In this document: positions 31,485 to 38,434 of the stretch, piece by piece
How positions within the stretch are numbered: position 1 is the first letter of the stretch
Layout: every line of letters starts with the position of its first letter
Sequence record: PV806337.1
Reading direction: 5' to 3' (one strand)
DNA length: 64,000 nucleotides
Source: a phage
Program-made: the position numbers and the translations under genes
Notes under the pieces: model-generated
The model's input: only the letters and a program-made list of their open reading frames with translations
Databases searched by the model: none
What the model was told of the DNA's origin: nothing

Positions 31485-32123
31485 ATGACTACTCGTATCT
31501 CTAAAACTCGCGCTCTGGCAACTATCAAATCTCTGGAAGCTAAAATCCGTAAAGCTACTGAACAACAGCTTCTGATCGCTGTTGGTGAAGGTAAGGATAA
31601 AAATAAGGTTGTAGTTGGCGCTGCAATCGAAGTAGATGATTTATCTGAGCGTATTAAGACAGATTTCCAGTCCCTGCTGGATATGATGTCCCAGCGTGAT
31701 CGTATCAAAGCTGCTCTGATTAAGAGCAATGCAGAAACGATCGTTGAGATAGGCTCTCGTAAAATGACTGTTGCGGAAGCAATTGAAGCTAAGCGTTCTA
31801 TGGAACTTAAAGCCCAACTGCTGGCTAACATGCGTAAGCAGTTCCATGCCGCCACGGTTAAGTTTAATACGCAGAAAGCACAGTTTGATGCTAAATATGA
31901 GCGTTTGCAGGATAGCATGGCTACCCGTGATAAGAAAACTTCCGAAGATGAAGTTAAAATGCAGCTCAACCTGCTGGAACTCAAGAATACTCCATTCTTG
32001 ATTGATCCGCTGGAACTGGAGAAGCTGATTAAGCAGCATGACGAGGAATACCAGGACTTTGCAACAAATGTTGATTTTGTTCTGTCCGAGTCTAACGCCT
32101 CTACCTTCATTGAAGTAGAGTAA
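31485..32123 (+). CDS. hypothetical protein (212 aa), coiled-coil-rich
   Basis: Track ORF with RBS AAGGAAG; antisense track ORFs look spurious. Confidence 0.6.
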   Translation: MTTRISKTRALATIKSLEAKIRKATEQQLLIAVGEGKDKNKVVVGAAIEVDDLSERIKTDFQSLLDMMSQRDRIKAALIKSNAETIVEIGSRKMTVAEAIEAKRSMELKAQLLANMRKQFHAATVKFNTQKAQFDAKYERLQDSMATRDKKTSEDEVKMQLNLLELKNTPFLIDPLELEKLIKQHDEEYQDFATNVDFVLSESNASTFIEVE

Positions 32124-32565: not shown

Positions 32566-32883
32566 ATGACTTTTCATATTTTGATTGATGATGTGCGTAA
32601 TCTTCACGGAATGGATATTATCATTCGAACCCCAGAAGCCGCTGTAGAGTTTCTGAATAAAACTGATACCACCGGCCATTTCGTTTATATGGATAATGAC
32701 TTGGCTGTAGATGGTATGGAAGGTTATCAAATTCTTCGTTTACTCTTAGAATTTGGGCAGAGACCAAAGAAAGTGGTACTAGTAACCTCGAACCCAGTAG
32801 CTAAGCAAAATATGCGTAATGATTTGCTTGACTTAGGGTATAAAGAAAATCCCAATCGTGTTGAATATGATTGGCAGGAGTAA
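32566..32883 (+). CDS. hypothetical protein (105 aa), possibly receiver-like fold
   Basis: Track ORF with own promoter; acidic residues ILIDDV...MDNDL; weak. Confidence 0.5.
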   Translation: MTFHILIDDVRNLHGMDIIIRTPEAAVEFLNKTDTTGHFVYMDNDLAVDGMEGYQILRLLLEFGQRPKKVVLVTSNPVAKQNMRNDLLDLGYKENPNRVEYDWQE

Positions 32884-32888
32884 AAAGA

Positions 32889-33338
32889 ATGAAGGCAGCT
32901 TTGCTTTTAGTAGCTGCCCTTACCTTCAGCTTTAGTAGTCAGGCATCGCACGATGCAAAAGAAATAGATTGCATTGCTAAAAATATCTATTTCGAAAGTC
33001 GTGGTGAGGGCATAAAGGGAATGACGGCGATTGCACATGTTACTAAAAACCGTGTAAACTCCGGTAAATTCCCAGATTCCTACTGTAAAGTAGTATATCA
33101 GTCTAACCAGTTCTCTTGGGTATCTAAGAGACCAAAAGTTGATAAAACTGATGAGGCTTGGCAAACCGCTAAGAATTTAGCTAGAGTGATATACTACGTT
33201 GATTTACCACAAGATCCTACATATGGAGCACTATACTTCCATAGTGGTAAAGATAAACCTTACTGGACAAAGAAGTTTAAGAAAACAACTAAGATTAAGG
33301 GACATACATTCTATAAACCTGTTGTCACTAAAACTTAA
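32889..33338 (+). CDS. secreted cell-wall hydrolase, SleB/CwlJ-like
   Basis: Signal peptide MKAALLLVAALTFSFSSQA; block NIYFESRGEGIKGMTAIAHVTKNR typical of SleB-type hydrolases. Confidence 0.6.
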   Translation: MKAALLLVAALTFSFSSQASHDAKEIDCIAKNIYFESRGEGIKGMTAIAHVTKNRVNSGKFPDSYCKVVYQSNQFSWVSKRPKVDKTDEAWQTAKNLARVIYYVDLPQDPTYGALYFHSGKDKPYWTKKFKKTTKIKGHTFYKPVVTKT

Positions 33339-33406: not shown

Positions 33407-33577
33407 ATGAAATCAGTTGTAATTATTGGTGTTAACACTCGCGGTATTCGTACTACGAAAACTGTTAAAACTTCTAACGTTGCTGAAATAACTACGAACC
33501 CTAAAAAGTTTGATTTCGCCAAAGTCTCAGCAGTTATGACAGAACAATCTTTTAACCAAGCATTGGGGATGAAATAA
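33407..33577 (+). CDS. hypothetical small protein (56 aa)
   Basis: Not in track (<60 aa); T5-type promoter and RBS GAGAGGAAG upstream; stop overlaps next start. Confidence 0.4.
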   Translation: MKSVVIIGVNTRGIRTTKTVKTSNVAEITTNPKKFDFAKVSAVMTEQSFNQALGMK

Positions 33578-34011
33578 TGGGTGAAAATATTCTAATGACC
33601 CTTCGTGGACTACTTAGTCTAGCACGTACTCACGGTGATAAGGAACGGGCACTTAATCTTCAGACCATGATTGGTGATCTGCAACGTATTGATAAAGACA
33701 TTGTTACTCGAACCGAGTTCGTAGCCTATCTGAAAGCTCAGATTAAGGCTCTAGAAAATGCAAAACAACGCGCTATTAAAGTTGGTATGGAAGTTCCTAC
33801 TGATGTAGACTATGAGCAACTGCTTTATTCCATGCTGCAAGAGTATCAGCCAAGTCAACTGACTGAGGTTCAGATTCGTGAGTATTTTGCAGAACTGGTT
33901 AAATTAAACCCAGGTATTACCAAAGCTCTATTAATGAAAACTATTAAGGCAGAATTTCCCGGACGTTATGACGGTAAAACAACTGCTTTGATTGCTAGTG
34001 AATTTTTCTAA
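33577..34011 (+). CDS. hypothetical protein (144 aa)
   Basis: Track ORF. Confidence 0.55.
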   Translation: MGENILMTLRGLLSLARTHGDKERALNLQTMIGDLQRIDKDIVTRTEFVAYLKAQIKALENAKQRAIKVGMEVPTDVDYEQLLYSMLQEYQPSQLTEVQIREYFAELVKLNPGITKALLMKTIKAEFPGRYDGKTTALIASEFF

Positions 34012-34019
34012 AAATTCAT

Positions 34020-34048
34020 TTGCTAAATGCTTATAAATTCTGTATAAT
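34020..34048 (+). promoter_or_regulatory. T5-type promoter driving an about 800-nt non-coding transcript ending in tRNA-Arg
   Basis: -35 TTGCTA, 17 bp, -10 TATAAT; no ORF with RBS until 34955. Confidence 0.7.
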
Positions 34049-34270
34049 ATATTCATAAATTAGGGAACAGCGAGCCGATTACGCTGAGTGCAGAATCCCA
34101 ACCGGAGCGCATTGAATAGAGTCGGTGGGTTAGTTGTAAAACTAGTACACAGGGGGCGGCAATCCCGGTTAGTGGCTAGAACGTGTAAAATGAGGCGTCT
34201 GAAACCTCTCCCCTAAACTCTTCTCTGATTTATAAATAGTGGGGTGTGGAAATCACTTATGTAGTAACAC

Positions 34271-34342
34271 TGCCGTCCTAGTATAATTGGTATTATCAAG
34301 CCGTAACTGGTGGAAGATGTAGGTTCGAATCCTACGGTCGGT
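34271..34342 (+). ncRNA. degenerate tRNA-like fragment (T-arm and acceptor only)
   Basis: T-arm GTAGG-TTCGAAT-CCTAC and 6/7-bp acceptor GCCGTCC/GGTCGGT, no convincing anticodon arm, no CCA. Confidence 0.3.
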
Positions 34343-34845
34343 AAGAACTGGATAACTGATGCTTTTAACATAAAAGCTTCCGAGGTTAGTTGCGCACTGC
34401 CTAAACCACGCGGTAGTTGGTTCCAGACTAACCAACCAGTCTGCTGAATAGTTTTATTACGATTTAACTATGTCCAGGCTAAAGAAGAACTTTAGAAGGT
34501 ATTCTAGGATAGTGAAGTTCTTTCTCCATATCGGAGTAGTTTTTCAAGCTATCCACAAAGTGGGAAATGCTGACATGAGAGATGTCACTAATGGTGCACA
34601 ATAGCACAGGTAATTCGCGATAACTCCTGTTGAGTAGCAGCAAAAGGTGGGAAGTCATGACCCCAAGCCTAACCGAGTCCTCAATATACCGCAGGACATA
34701 ACCACTAAGTCACCCTGACTTAAACTGGAAAATAATAGACGTTACTGTATTTTGTCTTGAAATACTTAATGAGTGAGACTTATGACTCTCCCGGTATCGT
34801 CTGTATTTTTAAGAGTTTTTACGAGAGTTCTTAAAAATACTTAAA

Positions 34846-34920
34846 CGGGGTGTAGTCTAAGGGAGAGGCAGGAGTCTTCTAAATTCCTTTATGCAGGTTC
34901 GAATCCTGTCACCTCGGCCA
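34846..34920 (+). tRNA. tRNA-Arg (anticodon TCT)
   Basis: Acceptor CGGGGTG/CACCTCG, anticodon stem GGAGT/ATTCC with loop CTTCTAA, T-arm GCAGG-TTCGAAT-CCTGT, encoded CCA. Confidence 0.8.
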
Positions 34921-34954
34921 ATTTTATTAACTGTAACTAAAACAAAGGAAATAT

Positions 34955-35902
34955 ATGTTTGCTACTAAAAATATGAAAGAACTGACTTCTGAGCAGAAAG
35001 TAATTCGTACTATTAAACGTTGGGGTATTGGTGCTGTAGTTGGTTTAGCAGGTTTAATCCTAGCTTTTAATTCATATACTATTGTTTCTGATGGTACGGT
35101 TAAAACCCAAACATTCCTGGGTAAAGTAGACCCTAATCCAGTATTGCCGGGCTTCCATCTTGTAAACCCGTTTGCATCTTTCGATACTTTTAGTACAAAA
35201 GATATTGCTGTAAAATTAGATAAACTTCAGGTTCCTAGCCAGGATAAGTTTAAATCCACTGTTGACCTGACTGTTATGTTGCAGTTTGATGGTTCTAAAG
35301 CACCGATTAACCGTATTAACGCAGGTACTCAGGATCAGGCACTAGACAAGTATGTAACTGAAAAATTACTGTCTACTATTCGTGAGTTTGGTAAGTCTGT
35401 ACCTAAAGCACAAGATTTATTTGATGCTAAAATTCAGGCTCAATTGCAAACTGCAATTCAACAGGAAGTTGAAGAGTATGCGCGCCCATATGGTTACACA
35501 GTTAAGCAGGTATTCCTTCAGGATATTACCTTGCCGCCAGTAATCATGGAACAGGTACAGAATACCAAAGTTCGTGAAGAGCAAGTTAATGCTGCGAAAG
35601 CTGAACTTGCTCGCGTTGAACAGGAAGCACAGCAAAAAGTTAAACAAGCAGAAGCAGATCGTGAAGCTCGTAACAACCAAGCTATTGCTAATGAACGTGA
35701 CGCAGATGCTAAACTGTACGCAGCTAAGAAAGAAGCTGAAGCTAACGCCGCATTGCAACGTACCATTACTCCTGAAATGATTCGTTGGAAACAACTGGAA
35801 GTTGAAATGATCCGTGCTCAGAAGTATCAAGGTGGTGTACCTCAGACTGTGGTAGGTACTGGCTACGATGGTCAAATGATCATGGATATGCGTAACAAGT
35901 AA
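34955..35902 (+). CDS. SPFH/band-7 (stomatin/prohibitin-like) membrane protein
   Basis: N-terminal TM (WGIGAVVGLAGLILAF), SPFH-like core, long Ala/Glu/Gln coiled coil. Confidence 0.65.
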   Translation: MFATKNMKELTSEQKVIRTIKRWGIGAVVGLAGLILAFNSYTIVSDGTVKTQTFLGKVDPNPVLPGFHLVNPFASFDTFSTKDIAVKLDKLQVPSQDKFKSTVDLTVMLQFDGSKAPINRINAGTQDQALDKYVTEKLLSTIREFGKSVPKAQDLFDAKIQAQLQTAIQQEVEEYARPYGYTVKQVFLQDITLPPVIMEQVQNTKVREEQVNAAKAELARVEQEAQQKVKQAEADREARNNQAIANERDADAKLYAAKKEAEANAALQRTITPEMIRWKQLEVEMIRAQKYQGGVPQTVVGTGYDGQMIMDMRNK

Positions 35903-35925: not shown

Positions 35926-35960
35926 AAGCCCGCGTTTCCTACGAGAGCGCGGGCTTTTCT
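35926..35960 (+). terminator. rho-independent terminator after SPFH gene
   Basis: AAGCCCGCG ... CGCGGGCTT followed by TTTCTGTATTT. Confidence 0.7.
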
Positions 35961-36221: not shown

Positions 36222-36638
36222 TTAGGAGTTACTACCCCCATTTTGAGCTTTTGCAACTTGGCTTTGGCAGAAGCTATTAAACTTACCCATAAGTGATACA
36301 AGCTGTTTCCCATCCTCTGTCTTTGCGAAGTCTTCGAAAAGGGCTAGTACTGCCTGTCCTTCCGCAGAAACCTGCGGTTGTTGGGTTTGTTGCTGAACTT
36401 GCTGCTGAGGCACCTGTTGCTGCATTTGTTGAGGCATTTGCGACTGCCCGCTCATTTGCTGCATCATTTGCATAGGACTCACACTTCCAGGGTTTTGCTG
36501 GAGTTGTTGCTGCATCTGTTGCGCTTCTGCTAAACGCTGTTGCAACTGTTGTAAGTAGGGGTTATCCAGACCCGGAATGGGCTGCTGGGAGCCCATACTT
36601 TGATTAAGTCCGTTATTTACAAAACCATATTTACTCAT
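36222..36638 (-). CDS. Gln-rich low-complexity protein (138 aa)
   Basis: Track ORF; extreme Q/M/P composition (QQMQQQLQQ...). Confidence 0.5.
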   Translation of the reverse strand: MSKYGFVNNGLNQSMGSQQPIPGLDNPYLQQLQQRLAEAQQMQQQLQQNPGSVSPMQMMQQMSGQSQMPQQMQQQVPQQQVQQQTQQPQVSAEGQAVLALFEDFAKTEDGKQLVSLMGKFNSFCQSQVAKAQNGGSNS

Positions 36639-36659: not shown

Positions 36660-37649
36660 TTAAGCCGGCAGTTTAGCCTGCAGACCAGCCAGAGTCTGAG
36701 TGATAGCACCAAGACTTAAAGCGATTTGATTAATTACCTGACCGTTAGCACCGCTACCCGCAGCGATTGCTTCACGTAGGCGACATGCGTCTAACTCATC
36801 CTGGATACGCGCAGTAGTTACACCAGCGATCGCAGTCTGAAGTTCACAGCAACATTCAGCGATCTGACGTTCCAGAGAGTTCTGGTTAGCACACATCTGA
36901 GCCTGAACAGCGGCAAACTGGTTATTAGTTTGTAAAGTCTGCTGGAAAGCGATCTGTGCAGAATCAAACTTATCTTGTGCACGAGCTATCTGGTTAGCTG
37001 CGAAAGATTGATCAATCTGGCGAGAAAGATCGAACTGACCCTGAATAACGTTGCGAGTTTCCTGGCAGATCTGATTAGACAGATTAGCACCTGTACCGTA
37101 GATCGTAGTTAGTACAGACTGAGTATCACGGCTCTGGTTTTGGGTTGTCTGGCTAAAACCATTGTTAACTGCGCTTAAAACAGCTCCAGTACCCTGGTTA
37201 GCCTCTGTACGAGTAGTGTTGATAGCTGCTAGAATACTAGCGGTATCTTGGTTCTGAAGTACTGCATCAACTGCGGTACCTTCACCAACTACACCACGTC
37301 CACCGAATCCACCGAAACCACCGAATCCGCCGGTTAATAGAGCACCGATTAGGATAGCTCCGAATAGTCCCATACCTTCACCACCGAAAGCACCTGCGTT
37401 TGCTGGGTAACCACCCAGTAGGCCAGGGAAGCCACTAGTGAATACGTTTACTGGTTCTTGCATTTTATGTTTTCCATATTTATGACAATGTTCATCATCG
37501 TCATCTTCTTCTTCATCATCGTGTTCACGATGTTTTTCTTCGTAGGCTCTGACCTTCTCCCACTTTTTCTTATCTGATTCCTCGTGACGGTGCAGTTCTG
37601 CTGCAACGCTAGCGACGGTCTCAGGACTCTTAGCTACTTCTTCTGTCAT
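36660..37649 (-). CDS. membrane protein with His/acidic N-terminus, Gly-rich TM and Q/N/T-rich C-terminus
   Basis: Likely start M21 of track ORF with RBS AGGAGGTG; HREHDDEEEDDDDEH block; GALLTGGFGGFGGFGG; own sigma70-like promoter. Confidence 0.55.
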   Translation of the reverse strand: MTEEVAKSPETVASVAAELHRHEESDKKKWEKVRAYEEKHREHDDEEEDDDDEHCHKYGKHKMQEPVNVFTSGFPGLLGGYPANAGAFGGEGMGLFGAILIGALLTGGFGGFGGFGGRGVVGEGTAVDAVLQNQDTASILAAINTTRTEANQGTGAVLSAVNNGFSQTTQNQSRDTQSVLTTIYGTGANLSNQICQETRNVIQGQFDLSRQIDQSFAANQIARAQDKFDSAQIAFQQTLQTNNQFAAVQAQMCANQNSLERQIAECCCELQTAIAGVTTARIQDELDACRLREAIAAGSGANGQVINQIALSLGAITQTLAGLQAKLPA

Positions 37650-37711
37650 ATTTTGACACCTCCTAGTATATAGAAAATGTGTGTCTCTTTGATCACTCAT
37701 CCATAACATAT

Positions 37712-37856: not shown

Positions 37857-37885
37857 TTGCTTGAATGCTAAATTCTCTGTATAAT
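37857..37885 (+). promoter_or_regulatory. T5-type promoter for Toprim gene
   Basis: -35 TTGCTT, 17 bp, -10 TATAAT. Confidence 0.7.
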
Positions 37886-37915
37886 ATATCTATAAATTTG
37901 AGAGAGGAACCAAAT

Positions 37916-38434
37916 ATGAATGTTGATGAGCTAACACAGCACCTCTTATCCAGAGGATTTGATACAGATAAATATCATTGCTGGTTAAGTCCGGAAGGAT
38001 GGCTAACAGTCCCGTTGTATGACTTCTCCGGGATGTTGCGAGGCTATCAGACGTATAATCCTTCTGCTCCAAAAGGTCATGGTAAGTGTCCCTTTGAAGC
38101 TAAATATTTTACTTATTCTACTACCCAGTGTGTATGGGGACTAGAAACTCTCAATGGAGATGAAAAAGTAGTATTGATCGCTGAATCTGTATTTAAGGCA
38201 GTTGCGCTACATAACGCTGGTTATCCAGCCCTGGCAATGTTAGGTTCTTCTCCAGGAAAAGCGTTATTAAAGCAACTGAAATTATTACCTTTTAAATTGG
38301 TAGCTGTCGGAGACAACGATCCTGCGGGTGAAAAATTTGCTAGAAAATTAAACGGCTTTGTTTCTCCCGTAGATGTGGATGAGATGTCTACCGAAAACTT
38401 GAAAAATTTTCTTGCTATGAAGCTAAATTTCTAA
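37916..38434 (+). CDS. Toprim-domain protein (possible RNase M5-like/primase-like nuclease)
   Basis: Toprim Glu (VVLIAESVFKAV) and DxD (AVGDNDPAGEKFARKL); likely start M18 of track ORF. Confidence 0.6.
   Translation: MNVDELTQHLLSRGFDTDKYHCWLSPEGWLTVPLYDFSGMLRGYQTYNPSAPKGHGKCPFEAKYFTYSTTQCVWGLETLNGDEKVVLIAESVFKAVALHNAGYPALAMLGSSPGKALLKQLKLLPFKLVAVGDNDPAGEKFARKLNGFVSPVDVDEMSTENLKNFLAMKLNF

Follow-up and report, generated by a model that had tools for sequence, protein, structure and literature searches.

Cage-forming SPFH proteins, which include HflK/C, the prohibitins (PHB), erlin, stomatin, flotillin and QmcA, assemble into a closed ring or dome of 16 to 44 subunits. The canonical protomer of such a cage is built from a transmembrane (TM) segment, the SPFH1 and SPFH2 domains, the CC1 and CC2 segments and a C-terminal segment (CT) (PMC12624060). 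HflK/C, YbbK/QmcA and the prohibitins interact with FtsH-type proteases (PMC2636767; PMC10434171), and the SPFH4 proteins or p-prohibitins form a group that is encoded by single genes with no NfeD partner, is predicted to be periplasmic and is seldom present together with HflK/C (Hinderhofer et al., 2009; PMC2636767). Here we consider an SPFH protein that is encoded by a phage. A stretch of phage DNA of 64,000 nucleotides (record PV806337.1), hereafter called the window, carries at 34955..35902 on the plus strand an SPFH/Band-7 gene for a protein of 315 amino acids (35.3 kDa), the ortholog of T5.080 and of AY587007 ORF075. Our reading is that the product, which would be made early in infection, is an SPFH scaffold of the prohibitin type and would form an inner-membrane cage that acts on a host membrane client, and to this reading as a whole we give a probability of about one half.

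The assignment to the superfamily can be stated plainly. The first-pass annotation, made from the letters of the sequence alone, had proposed a gene at this place for a membrane protein with an N-terminal TM segment and an SPFH-like core, and these claims held. An ATG-started open reading frame (ORF) of 315 codons lies at exactly 34955-35902 on the plus strand, with an AAGGA ribosome-binding site read from the sequence at 34945..34949 (plus strand), 5 nt upstream of the ATG, and with a terminator behind it. The Pfam search that had been named as a check matched PF01145 Band_7 at residues 52-225, with E=2e-17 and a score of 64.2 bits, the curated cut-off being 23.6, and the same domain is carried by all of the homologs listed except one fragment of 210 residues. 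The outcome that would have spoken against the proposal, profile searches that lack an SPFH hit, did not occur. The ORF cannot be put down to chance, because it has tblastn matches in 726 phage records and 65 invariant columns among 22 diverse homologs. The protein is a member of the SPFH/Band 7 superfamily with a long helix after the alpha/beta fold.

The arrangement of the remaining parts was read from an AlphaFold2 model of a single chain, for which the alignment of 22 sequences served as input and which reached a mean predicted local distance difference test score (pLDDT) of 79. It consists of a helix at residues 12-38, an alpha/beta region at 41-192, one unbroken helix at 195-270, another helix at 273-290 and strands at 299-311, and when compared with the published protomer (PMC12624060) it contains the complete layout of anchor, SPFH1, SPFH2, CC1, CC2 and C-terminal segment. 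The protein, all coordinates being on the plus strand, starts with a basic tail (residues 1-22, 34955..35020) of six K/R and two D/E, which is predicted to be cytoplasmic from its composition and from the charge of the N-flank. The single TM signal-anchor follows at residues ~23-40 (35021..35074), where hydropathy and the model helix 12-38 agree; it is the sole hydrophobic segment, situated near the N-terminus, with a Kyte-Doolittle maximum of 1.79, and the NSYT motif behind it is kept clade-wide, in phage and bacterial relatives. The SPFH1/SPFH2 alpha/beta core (residues 41-192, 35075..35530) is modeled with a pLDDT of ~81-90 and is identified by both Pfam Band_7 and Foldseek. The CC1 wall helix, 76 residues long and rich in Ala, Glu and Gln, spans residues 195-270 (35537..35764) by model and composition, and the modeled CC2 helix at residues 273-290 (35771..35824) goes with an invariant TITPEMIRW-type motif; T270, I271, T272, W278 and L281 are invariant columns of the CC2 region in the 22 homologs. 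The C-terminal tail (35825..35899), with two short beta-strands at residues 299-302 and 308-311 and the conserved residues Y291, G293, V295, P296, T298 and G301, would by its place in the layout of PMC12624060 be a putative cap-forming CT. Its pLDDT of ~44-52 is as expected for a segment that would fold only in the oligomer.

A Foldseek search of the PDB with this model gave 64 chains at E ≤ 1e-3, the best 50 of the 64 being without exception SPFH-family proteins or major vault protein. The alignments to SPFH cage structures cover 266-307 columns, which is near full length, with E-values of 1e-14 for erlin1/2, ~1e-12 for prohibitin, 7e-12 for HflK/C, 2e-10 for QmcA and 1e-8 for flotillin, and stomatin was matched too. 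Judged from the sequence and the model, the phage protein is very probably a cage-former.

The long helix had been described in the first-pass annotation as an Ala/Glu/Gln-rich coiled coil. Its length of 76 residues and its composition stand, with A, E, Q, K and R making up 73% of residues 205-270, but no heptad or hendecad hydrophobic periodicity could be found in residues 195-270, which rules out a canonical coiled coil and identifies the segment as a CC1 wall helix of the SPFH type. The CC1 indels among the homologs are all of 11 or 22 residues, which equals 3 or 6 turns and is expected if neighboring, laterally packed helices must keep their register. They occupy alignment columns 260-281 and 284-294 (window residues ~249-251, nt ~35700-35710), and the same units of 11 or 22 residues, in which the pattern A-[DE]-A-x-[LF]-Y-x-A-x-K-E recurs, make up the differences in helix length across the phage family. 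The sequences suggest that the long helix grows and shrinks by hendecad repeats, which would alter the height of the cage or its number of subunits. A published regression (subunits = 0.1782 x CC1 length + 10.22; PMC12624060) gives by extrapolation 23.8 subunits and ~0.84 MDa for a CC1 of 76 residues.

A likeness to HflK/C, YqiK or flotillin had also been claimed for the protein. At the level of fold and architecture this is correct, as the Foldseek matches to HflK/C and flotillin illustrate, but it does not extend to family membership. No family in NCBIfam matched at E ≤ 1, and hence no HflK or HflC model; blastp against the E. coli proteins gave E=0.21 for HflC, E=0.45 for HflK and an insignificant value for YqiK; and a family profile searched against the PDB at E ≤ 0.01 did not detect HflK/C. 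Together with the presence of a single gene, these results rule out membership of the HflK/HflC or YqiK/flotillin families. QmcA is the best single-sequence match (E=1.8e-6 in the PDB, E=3e-8 in E. coli, 23% identity), and in the profile search this match shrinks mainly to the low-complexity helix. The SPFH core (positions 40-238) aligns in the profile search only with PHB1/PHB2, a weak but specific match of 1.2e-4 to 2e-4. By sequence, the phage protein thus appears closest to the prohibitins. An exhaustive search of 1.84 billion representatives with a hidden Markov model found 1,924 clusters at E ≤ 1e-3, of which 83 reached E ≤ 1e-30, and these low counts indicate a small, distinct clade inside a very large superfamily.

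It is by the prohibitins that the SPFH core is covered best at the sequence level (PHB1/PHB2, ~1e-4), and they are also among the top fold matches and share the layout of TM, SPFH1/2, CC1, CC2 and CT with the phage protein. On the other hand, the identity between them is just 16-20%, and eukaryotic PHB1/2 are hetero-oligomeric, whereas the phage protein, being encoded by a single gene, is presumably homo-oligomeric. The protein also fits SPFH4/p-prohibitin by the published description, as a single gene without an NfeD partner and with a domain that is predicted to face the exoplasmic side. It differs from that group in being a gene of virulent phages whose hosts own HflK/C, whereas SPFH4 and HflK/C are rarely found in one genome. 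No NfeD gene was seen in the annotated neighborhoods of T5, JLBYU40 and Cronobacter phage leN, the remainder of the phage genome being unscanned, nor among the Pfam-scanned neighbors of the bacterial homologs in Morganella, Methylophagaceae and Methylococcaceae. Likewise, no second SPFH gene adjoins the gene in T5-like phages, in T4-like phages or in the loci of these three bacterial groups. Among the E. coli controls, hflK and hflC are adjacent, and qmcA-ybbJ and yqiJ-yqiK are paired. Clustering of the neighbors over 44 bacterial loci gave lineage-specific synteny only, with no conserved partner gene.

The obvious template for the mechanism of a periplasmic dome around a membrane protease is HflK/HflC-FtsH. 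The phage protein shares with HflK and HflC the protomer fold, matched by Foldseek over the full length, and a positive N-flank, which would imply that the N-terminus is inside and the domain in the periplasm. It differs from them in that the gene has no paralog to form a pair, no NCBIfam model match and no significant sequence similarity, and in that the cytoplasmic N-terminal extension of ~80 residues in HflK is missing. QmcA (YbbK), an SPFH1 protein of the stomatin type which pairs with YbbJ, is of similar length (305 residues) and homo-oligomeric, in addition to being the best single-sequence match, but the qmcA gene stands in an operon with NfeD, as the phage gene does not, and QmcA is a cytoplasm-facing protein with an uncharged N-flank. 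YqiK, of the flotillin type (SPFH2), whose members have ~500 residues or more and a long EA-rich region, is longer (553 residues) and has an N-flank of -2, compared to 315 residues and +3 in the phage protein. Erlin1/2 is the top structural match, with ~305 aligned columns and a TM-score of ~0.55, and the domain order is alike, as the predicted exoplasmic orientation would be; it is, however, a eukaryotic protein of the lumen of the endoplasmic reticulum with 17-19% identity and no detectable match at the sequence level. The resemblance to erlin is architectural only.

On which side of the inner membrane the SPFH domain is situated was judged from the net charge of the N-flank. This is +3 in the phage protein, +2 in both HflK and HflC, which face the periplasm, 0 in QmcA and -2 in YqiK, which face the cytoplasm. 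The measure sorts all four E. coli SPFH controls correctly and groups the phage protein with HflK/HflC, and the N-flanks of 117 proteins of the phage clade contain a mean of 3 K/R. A comparison of K/R counts before and after the TM segment was dropped, as it was wrong for the HflK and HflC controls. In two distant homologs from the bacterial sister clade, a lipobox-like LSCC stands in place of NSYT after the hydrophobic segment, which implies export of the domain in these relatives. We consider it probable from these sequence features that the N-terminus is inside and that the SPFH domain lies in the periplasm.

The domain call itself is not new, because GenBank already names identical and near-identical proteins band 7 or SPFH. 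AY587007 ORF075 is listed as “putative transmembrane protein, IPR001107: band 7 protein,” a GenBank protein with 100% identity is named “SPFH domain containing protein,” and some of the homologs are named “prohibitin family” or “PHB domain” protein. Furthermore, a comparative paper from 2006 reported SPFH/Band 7 Pfam matches for the T4-like proteins 44RR ORF098c, Aeh1 ORF064c and RB43 ORF139c (PMC1524935). The SPFH assignment is already public, and our result correctly identifies once more a domain that had been annotated, and corrects a widespread label. T5.080 is described in NC_005859 as “lipoprotein ... contains single transmembrane domain,” and the product name “lipoprotein” is repeated in many derived records and in PHROG_200, a family that matches the SPFH protein with E=1.9e-86. 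The lipobox-like LSCC of the two distant bacterial homologs could be cited in favor of this name. However, lipidation at a lipobox needs a cysteine and the protein contains none, while NSYT stands at the position of the Cys throughout the phage clade. A protein free of cysteine cannot carry a lipobox, so the label is wrong, and the chance that the T5 reference genome and PHROG_200 are right on this point is next to nil.

The gene was also said to be encoded among early genes, which agrees with the T5 and BF23 records: it lies in a tRNA-rich early region, between promoters that are labeled early in both records, and the early class takes in the tRNA genes (PMC10644984). The window comes from a T5-like phage: it contains 21 tRNA genes according to ARAGORN, several T5-like phages of Escherichia match the region with 100% identity, and the SPFH protein is 99.0% identical to T5.080, with 3 substitutions in 315 positions. 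A promoter scan found a sigma-70-type promoter-like site, TTGCTA-17-TATAAT with 10/12 matches, at 34020..34048 on the plus strand, at the end of the upstream gene for a YqeY-domain protein. In the T5 record, promoter P16-17 is annotated at the equivalent place, 5' of rnaX, tRNA-Arg and T5.080, and the predicted promoter in the window is a likely transcript start for the SPFH gene. Between it and tRNA-Arg(TCT) (34846..34920, plus strand, ARAGORN), which lies directly 5' of the SPFH gene, there is a non-coding leader (34049..34845, plus strand) that is the equivalent of the misc_RNA rnaX of T5. The leader, of ~800 nt, has only short overlapping ORFs of 41-60 codons, none of them credible, and the T5 annotation describes RNAX as a stable RNA of unknown function. 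Its equivalent here would share a transcript with the SPFH gene. The placement of tRNA-Arg is identical in T5, JLBYU40 and AY587007, and the tRNA and the SPFH gene apparently form one transcript.

The transcript would end at a bidirectional rho-independent terminator (35926..35956), a stem-loop with a 12-bp stem, 7 GC pairs and a T-run, which starts 24 nt 3' of the SPFH stop codon and ends both the SPFH unit and the convergent unit on the minus strand. At the equivalent site the T5 record notes an [quoted passage not shown] beside the 32.6% nick. The full order in T5 is P16-17, RNAX, tRNA-Arg, T5.080, the 32.6% nick and the bidirectional terminator, with a convergent T5.077-079 unit that has its own promoter, and the window repeats this layout with its promoter-like site, tRNA-Arg, terminator and minus-strand ORFs at 36222-36638 and 36660-37709.

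We propose that the gene product would act, from early in infection, as an SPFH scaffold of the prohibitin type. The basic N-terminus would stay in the cytoplasm, a single TM helix would anchor the protein in the host inner membrane, and the SPFH domain and the helices would lie in the periplasm, as they do in HflK/C, prohibitin and erlin. Packed next to one another, some 24 copies would make up a ~0.8-MDa dome and so enclose part of the inner membrane. In the last and most speculative step, the dome would capture or shield a host inner-membrane client and thereby alter membrane-protein quality control in the infected cell. A role connected to FtsH or to membrane organization, which the first-pass annotation had suggested, is reasonable by analogy. 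FtsH would be the leading candidate for the client because HflK/C, QmcA and the prohibitins all pair with FtsH-type proteases, and on this analogy we regard it as possible, at odds well short of even, that FtsH is indeed the client. In a bolder form of the proposal, the protein would be the first organelle-like membrane cage from a virus to serve a function of its own in infection, either as a mimic of HflK/C that traps FtsH and so neutralizes the protease, or as a shield against membrane-acting abortive infection that would be carried as a mobile single-gene cassette in the anti-defense island of T5-like phages and in T4-like phages. We think that this form is rather unlikely.

Several points weigh against our reading. 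In the literature on T5.080 and on phage SPFH proteins, including studies of genome-wide phage essentiality, we found no functional experiment. The model is of a single chain, and its C-terminal tail has low monomer confidence. The charge criterion that worked for the topology was picked after seeing only four controls, the rival K/R metric fails, and QmcA, the best single sequence match, faces the cytoplasm. Furthermore, there is no specific tie to FtsH, since sequence similarity to HflK/C was undetected and no protease gene is located nearby. Finally, phages BF23 and NG_S8, which have lost the gene as described below, grow without it, and an effect on FtsH is therefore unneeded for lytic growth on laboratory strains.

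The matches of the SPFH protein in phage records include T5-like phages of Salmonella and Escherichia with at least 90% identity, T4-like Straboviridae of Klebsiella, Enterobacter, Cronobacter and Citrobacter with ~75-80%, T4-like phages of Aeromonas with ~60% and some Vibrio phages with ~35%. It was found with at least 90% identity in 430 records and with 80-90% in another 11, as compared to 442 records for the T5 DNA polymerase at 90% or more, and from these similar counts we conclude that the gene is almost universal in T5-type phages. The proteins of T5-like and T4-like phages share 72-80% identity, and the neighborhoods in these phages have the SPFH gene alone in common, with no shared flanking gene and no neighbor that was co-transferred between them, which indicates that it moves as a single-gene cassette. 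These two unrelated groups of virulent phages both show purifying selection on the gene. In a divergent T5-like contig (L071, 61% identity) it is located in synteny, after rnh, a SleB-type hydrolase and a YqeY-domain gene, and must therefore be old in the lineage.

Outside of the phages, a bacterial sister clade with 31-41% identity is found in Methylococcaceae, Methylophagaceae, other Gammaproteobacteria, Desulfocapsaceae and one Myxococcota genome. The copies of this clade sit among housekeeping genes, and a prophage origin is consequently unsupported. A flavin oxidoreductase is located directly 3' of the SPFH gene in two separate lineages of the clade (L030, 6917-8245; L019, 6815-8149). The downstream oxidoreductase is of the Mqo/DAO type in the Methylophagaceae, and it is of the Pyr_redox_2/NDH-2-like type in the Methylococcaceae, where it is found in 7 loci and has an overlap of 13 nt with the SPFH stop codon. 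The cellular clade may thus have some connection with respiratory quinone reductases. On a metagenomic contig that looks like phage DNA, the gene directly 3' of the SPFH gene codes for an nSTAND-type NTPase (PF25199) of 410 residues (L073, 6490-7722; L074, 2420-3652).

A different situation is found in Morganella and Providencia, where chromosomal copies (L005-L017, for example L016, 5968-6939) show 57-59% identity with the phage protein and fall within the phage clade in a neighbor-joining tree. These copies share ~97% identity with each other over the SPFH core, reside in non-syntenic, non-prophage contexts and have the GC content of their own genome. The sequences suggest that the Morganellaceae copies may be domesticated phage genes, captured by the host from a phage. 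Copies of the T4-like type were also seen in a contig of 178 kb filed as “Flagellimonas marina” (L004, NZ_JBHSCL010000010.1) and in a Klebsiella pneumoniae “plasmid” of 174 kb (P0028). The SPFH protein on the Flagellimonas contig is in the tree essentially identical to that of Escherichia phage UPEC03. Judged on the SPFH gene only, these two records may represent genomes of T4-like phages that were filed as a bacterial contig and a plasmid.

Natural deletions connect the gene to a neighborhood that has been associated with anti-defense functions. Phage BF23 lacks ~4 kb corresponding to AY587007 ORF071-075, an event that has been termed the loss of an anti-defense locus (PMC10644984) because the TOPRIM protein of ORF071 is Rad, an anti-retron factor; ORF075 is the SPFH gene. 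In the BF23 genome hegA is followed directly by the gene for the YqeY-domain protein, and Rad, T5.077-079, the SPFH gene and tRNA-Arg are all gone. A similar deletion in phage NG_S8 has left only the last 42 SPFH codons. Both deletions take Rad and the SPFH gene as one block. The SPFH gene is accessory, unneeded on laboratory K-12 and kept in nature. In the window, the gene for Rad (37865..38434, plus strand, 189 residues), the ortholog of T5.076 and AY587007 ORF071 with 167 identical residues, is found 2 kb from the SPFH gene; in many records Rad is still annotated as “DNA primase” or “toprim domain protein.” An Anti-Defense Island of 8 kb that is spontaneously deletable has been described in T5 and PhiSP15, where tRNA-Tyr, an Ec83 blocker and Rad are located in it, along with an anti-AVAST-2 activity that has yet to be mapped (10.1101/2023.03.15.532788).

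These observations raise the alternative that the gene serves counter-defense, with a cage that would shield the inner membrane from membrane abortive-infection effectors or membrane-embedded defense sensors, or sequester them. The proximity to Rad, the joint loss of both genes in two natural deletions and the description of the region as an anti-defense island or locus in two studies (PMC10644984; 10.1101/2023.03.15.532788) all point in this direction, as do the movement of the gene as a single cassette between unrelated phages and the anti-AVAST-2 activity of the T5 island that is still to be mapped. Moreover, to be dispensable on K-12 and yet kept almost universally in nature is the usual mark of conditionally useful anti-defense genes. 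However, this is guilt by association only, and the gene is not beside Rad in the T4-like phages. The published text gives no end-points for the island, so that the SPFH gene is only a candidate for a place in the 8-kb deletion, and AVAST is cytoplasmic, which makes an SPFH cage an unlikely inhibitor of it. PADLOC-DB contains no defense-system family that matches at E ≤ 1, and there is no known anti-defense protein with an SPFH fold. Counter-defense is on balance a doubtful explanation, and one of the same standing is that of a generic scaffold for membrane homeostasis with no single client, which would stiffen or compartmentalize the inner membrane and so sustain respiration and the proton-motive force once the host's synthesis of membrane proteins has been shut off. 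PMC12005517 and PMC10434171 tie E. coli HflK/C to aerobic respiration and stress tolerance, and PMC13086221 describes SPFH mutants of P. aeruginosa with no laboratory phenotype, which parallels the dispensability of the phage gene. The lack of a conserved partner gene in any of the loci examined would also be in line with a generic scaffold, as would the membrane-associated flavin oxidoreductases next to the gene in the two bacterial sister lineages, but the latter linkage is lineage-specific and absent in the phages. The explanation is also unspecific and hard to tell from the client model.

A third possibility, quite improbable in our view, is that the protein controls the envelope, either by superinfection exclusion, with the entry of DNA blocked at the inner membrane, or by keeping phage enzymes that are periplasmic or related to lysis in check until they are due. 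A gene for a SleB/Hydrolase_2 cell-wall hydrolase (32871-33338, plus strand), with a signal peptide in the window copy, is located within a few genes of the SPFH gene, as in T5 and T5-like phages, and SleB-type hydrolase genes are also found near it in two divergent phage contigs, the T5-like L071 (5640-6068) and the phage-like L073 (7982-8404). A functional link may exist between the hydrolase and the SPFH protein as two envelope-directed early proteins, and according to a reference cited in PMC10644984, T5 makes an envelope protein early, Llp, which blocks its own receptor. However, the hydrolase is not near the SPFH gene in the T4-like phages, no holin or spanin is encoded nearby, and no precedent has been described for an SPFH protein in exclusion. 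We favor the prohibitin-type scaffold that acts on a host membrane client over each of these alternatives.

The equivalents of T5.078 and T5.077 (36222-36638 and 36660-37709, minus strand) are convergent to the SPFH gene, belong to the same deletable block and are of odd composition. One of the pair codes for a Gln-rich protein of 138 residues, and the other for a protein of 349 residues that combines a run of acidic residues, a hydrophobic stretch rich in Gly and Phe (…GLFGAILIGALLTGGFGGFGGFGGRG…) and a Gln/Asn-rich tail in which a CCC motif occurs. One of the two is absurdly annotated as “cAMP-dependent protein kinase catalytic subunit.” On the plus strand, the gene at 31485-32123 bears the public name “tail fiber protein,” and the YqeY/GatB-domain protein at 33577-34011 is variously called “tRNA amidotransferase” or “recombination-related exonuclease”; both look like mis-annotations that have been propagated in the early region.

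Our findings add to the known domain a small, single-gene clade that is nearest to the prohibitins, the mobility of this one gene between T5-like and T4-like phages and its joint deletion with Rad. Structural work on SPFH cages (HflK/C, prohibitin, erlin, stomatin, flotillin) is very active at present and their function is debated, and no virus-encoded member has been studied. The phage protein is attractive in this respect, as it is encoded by a single gene, is likely homo-oligomeric and easy to express, and since the gene is non-essential in a model phage that is easily engineered. Because nearly all natural T5-type phages and many T4-like phages have kept the gene, suitable conditions should reveal a phenotype. 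If the client is identified, the protein would offer a clean way to probe SPFH biology in E. coli by gain of function, and it might add a membrane-level mechanism to the strategies by which phages take over their hosts or counter their defenses.

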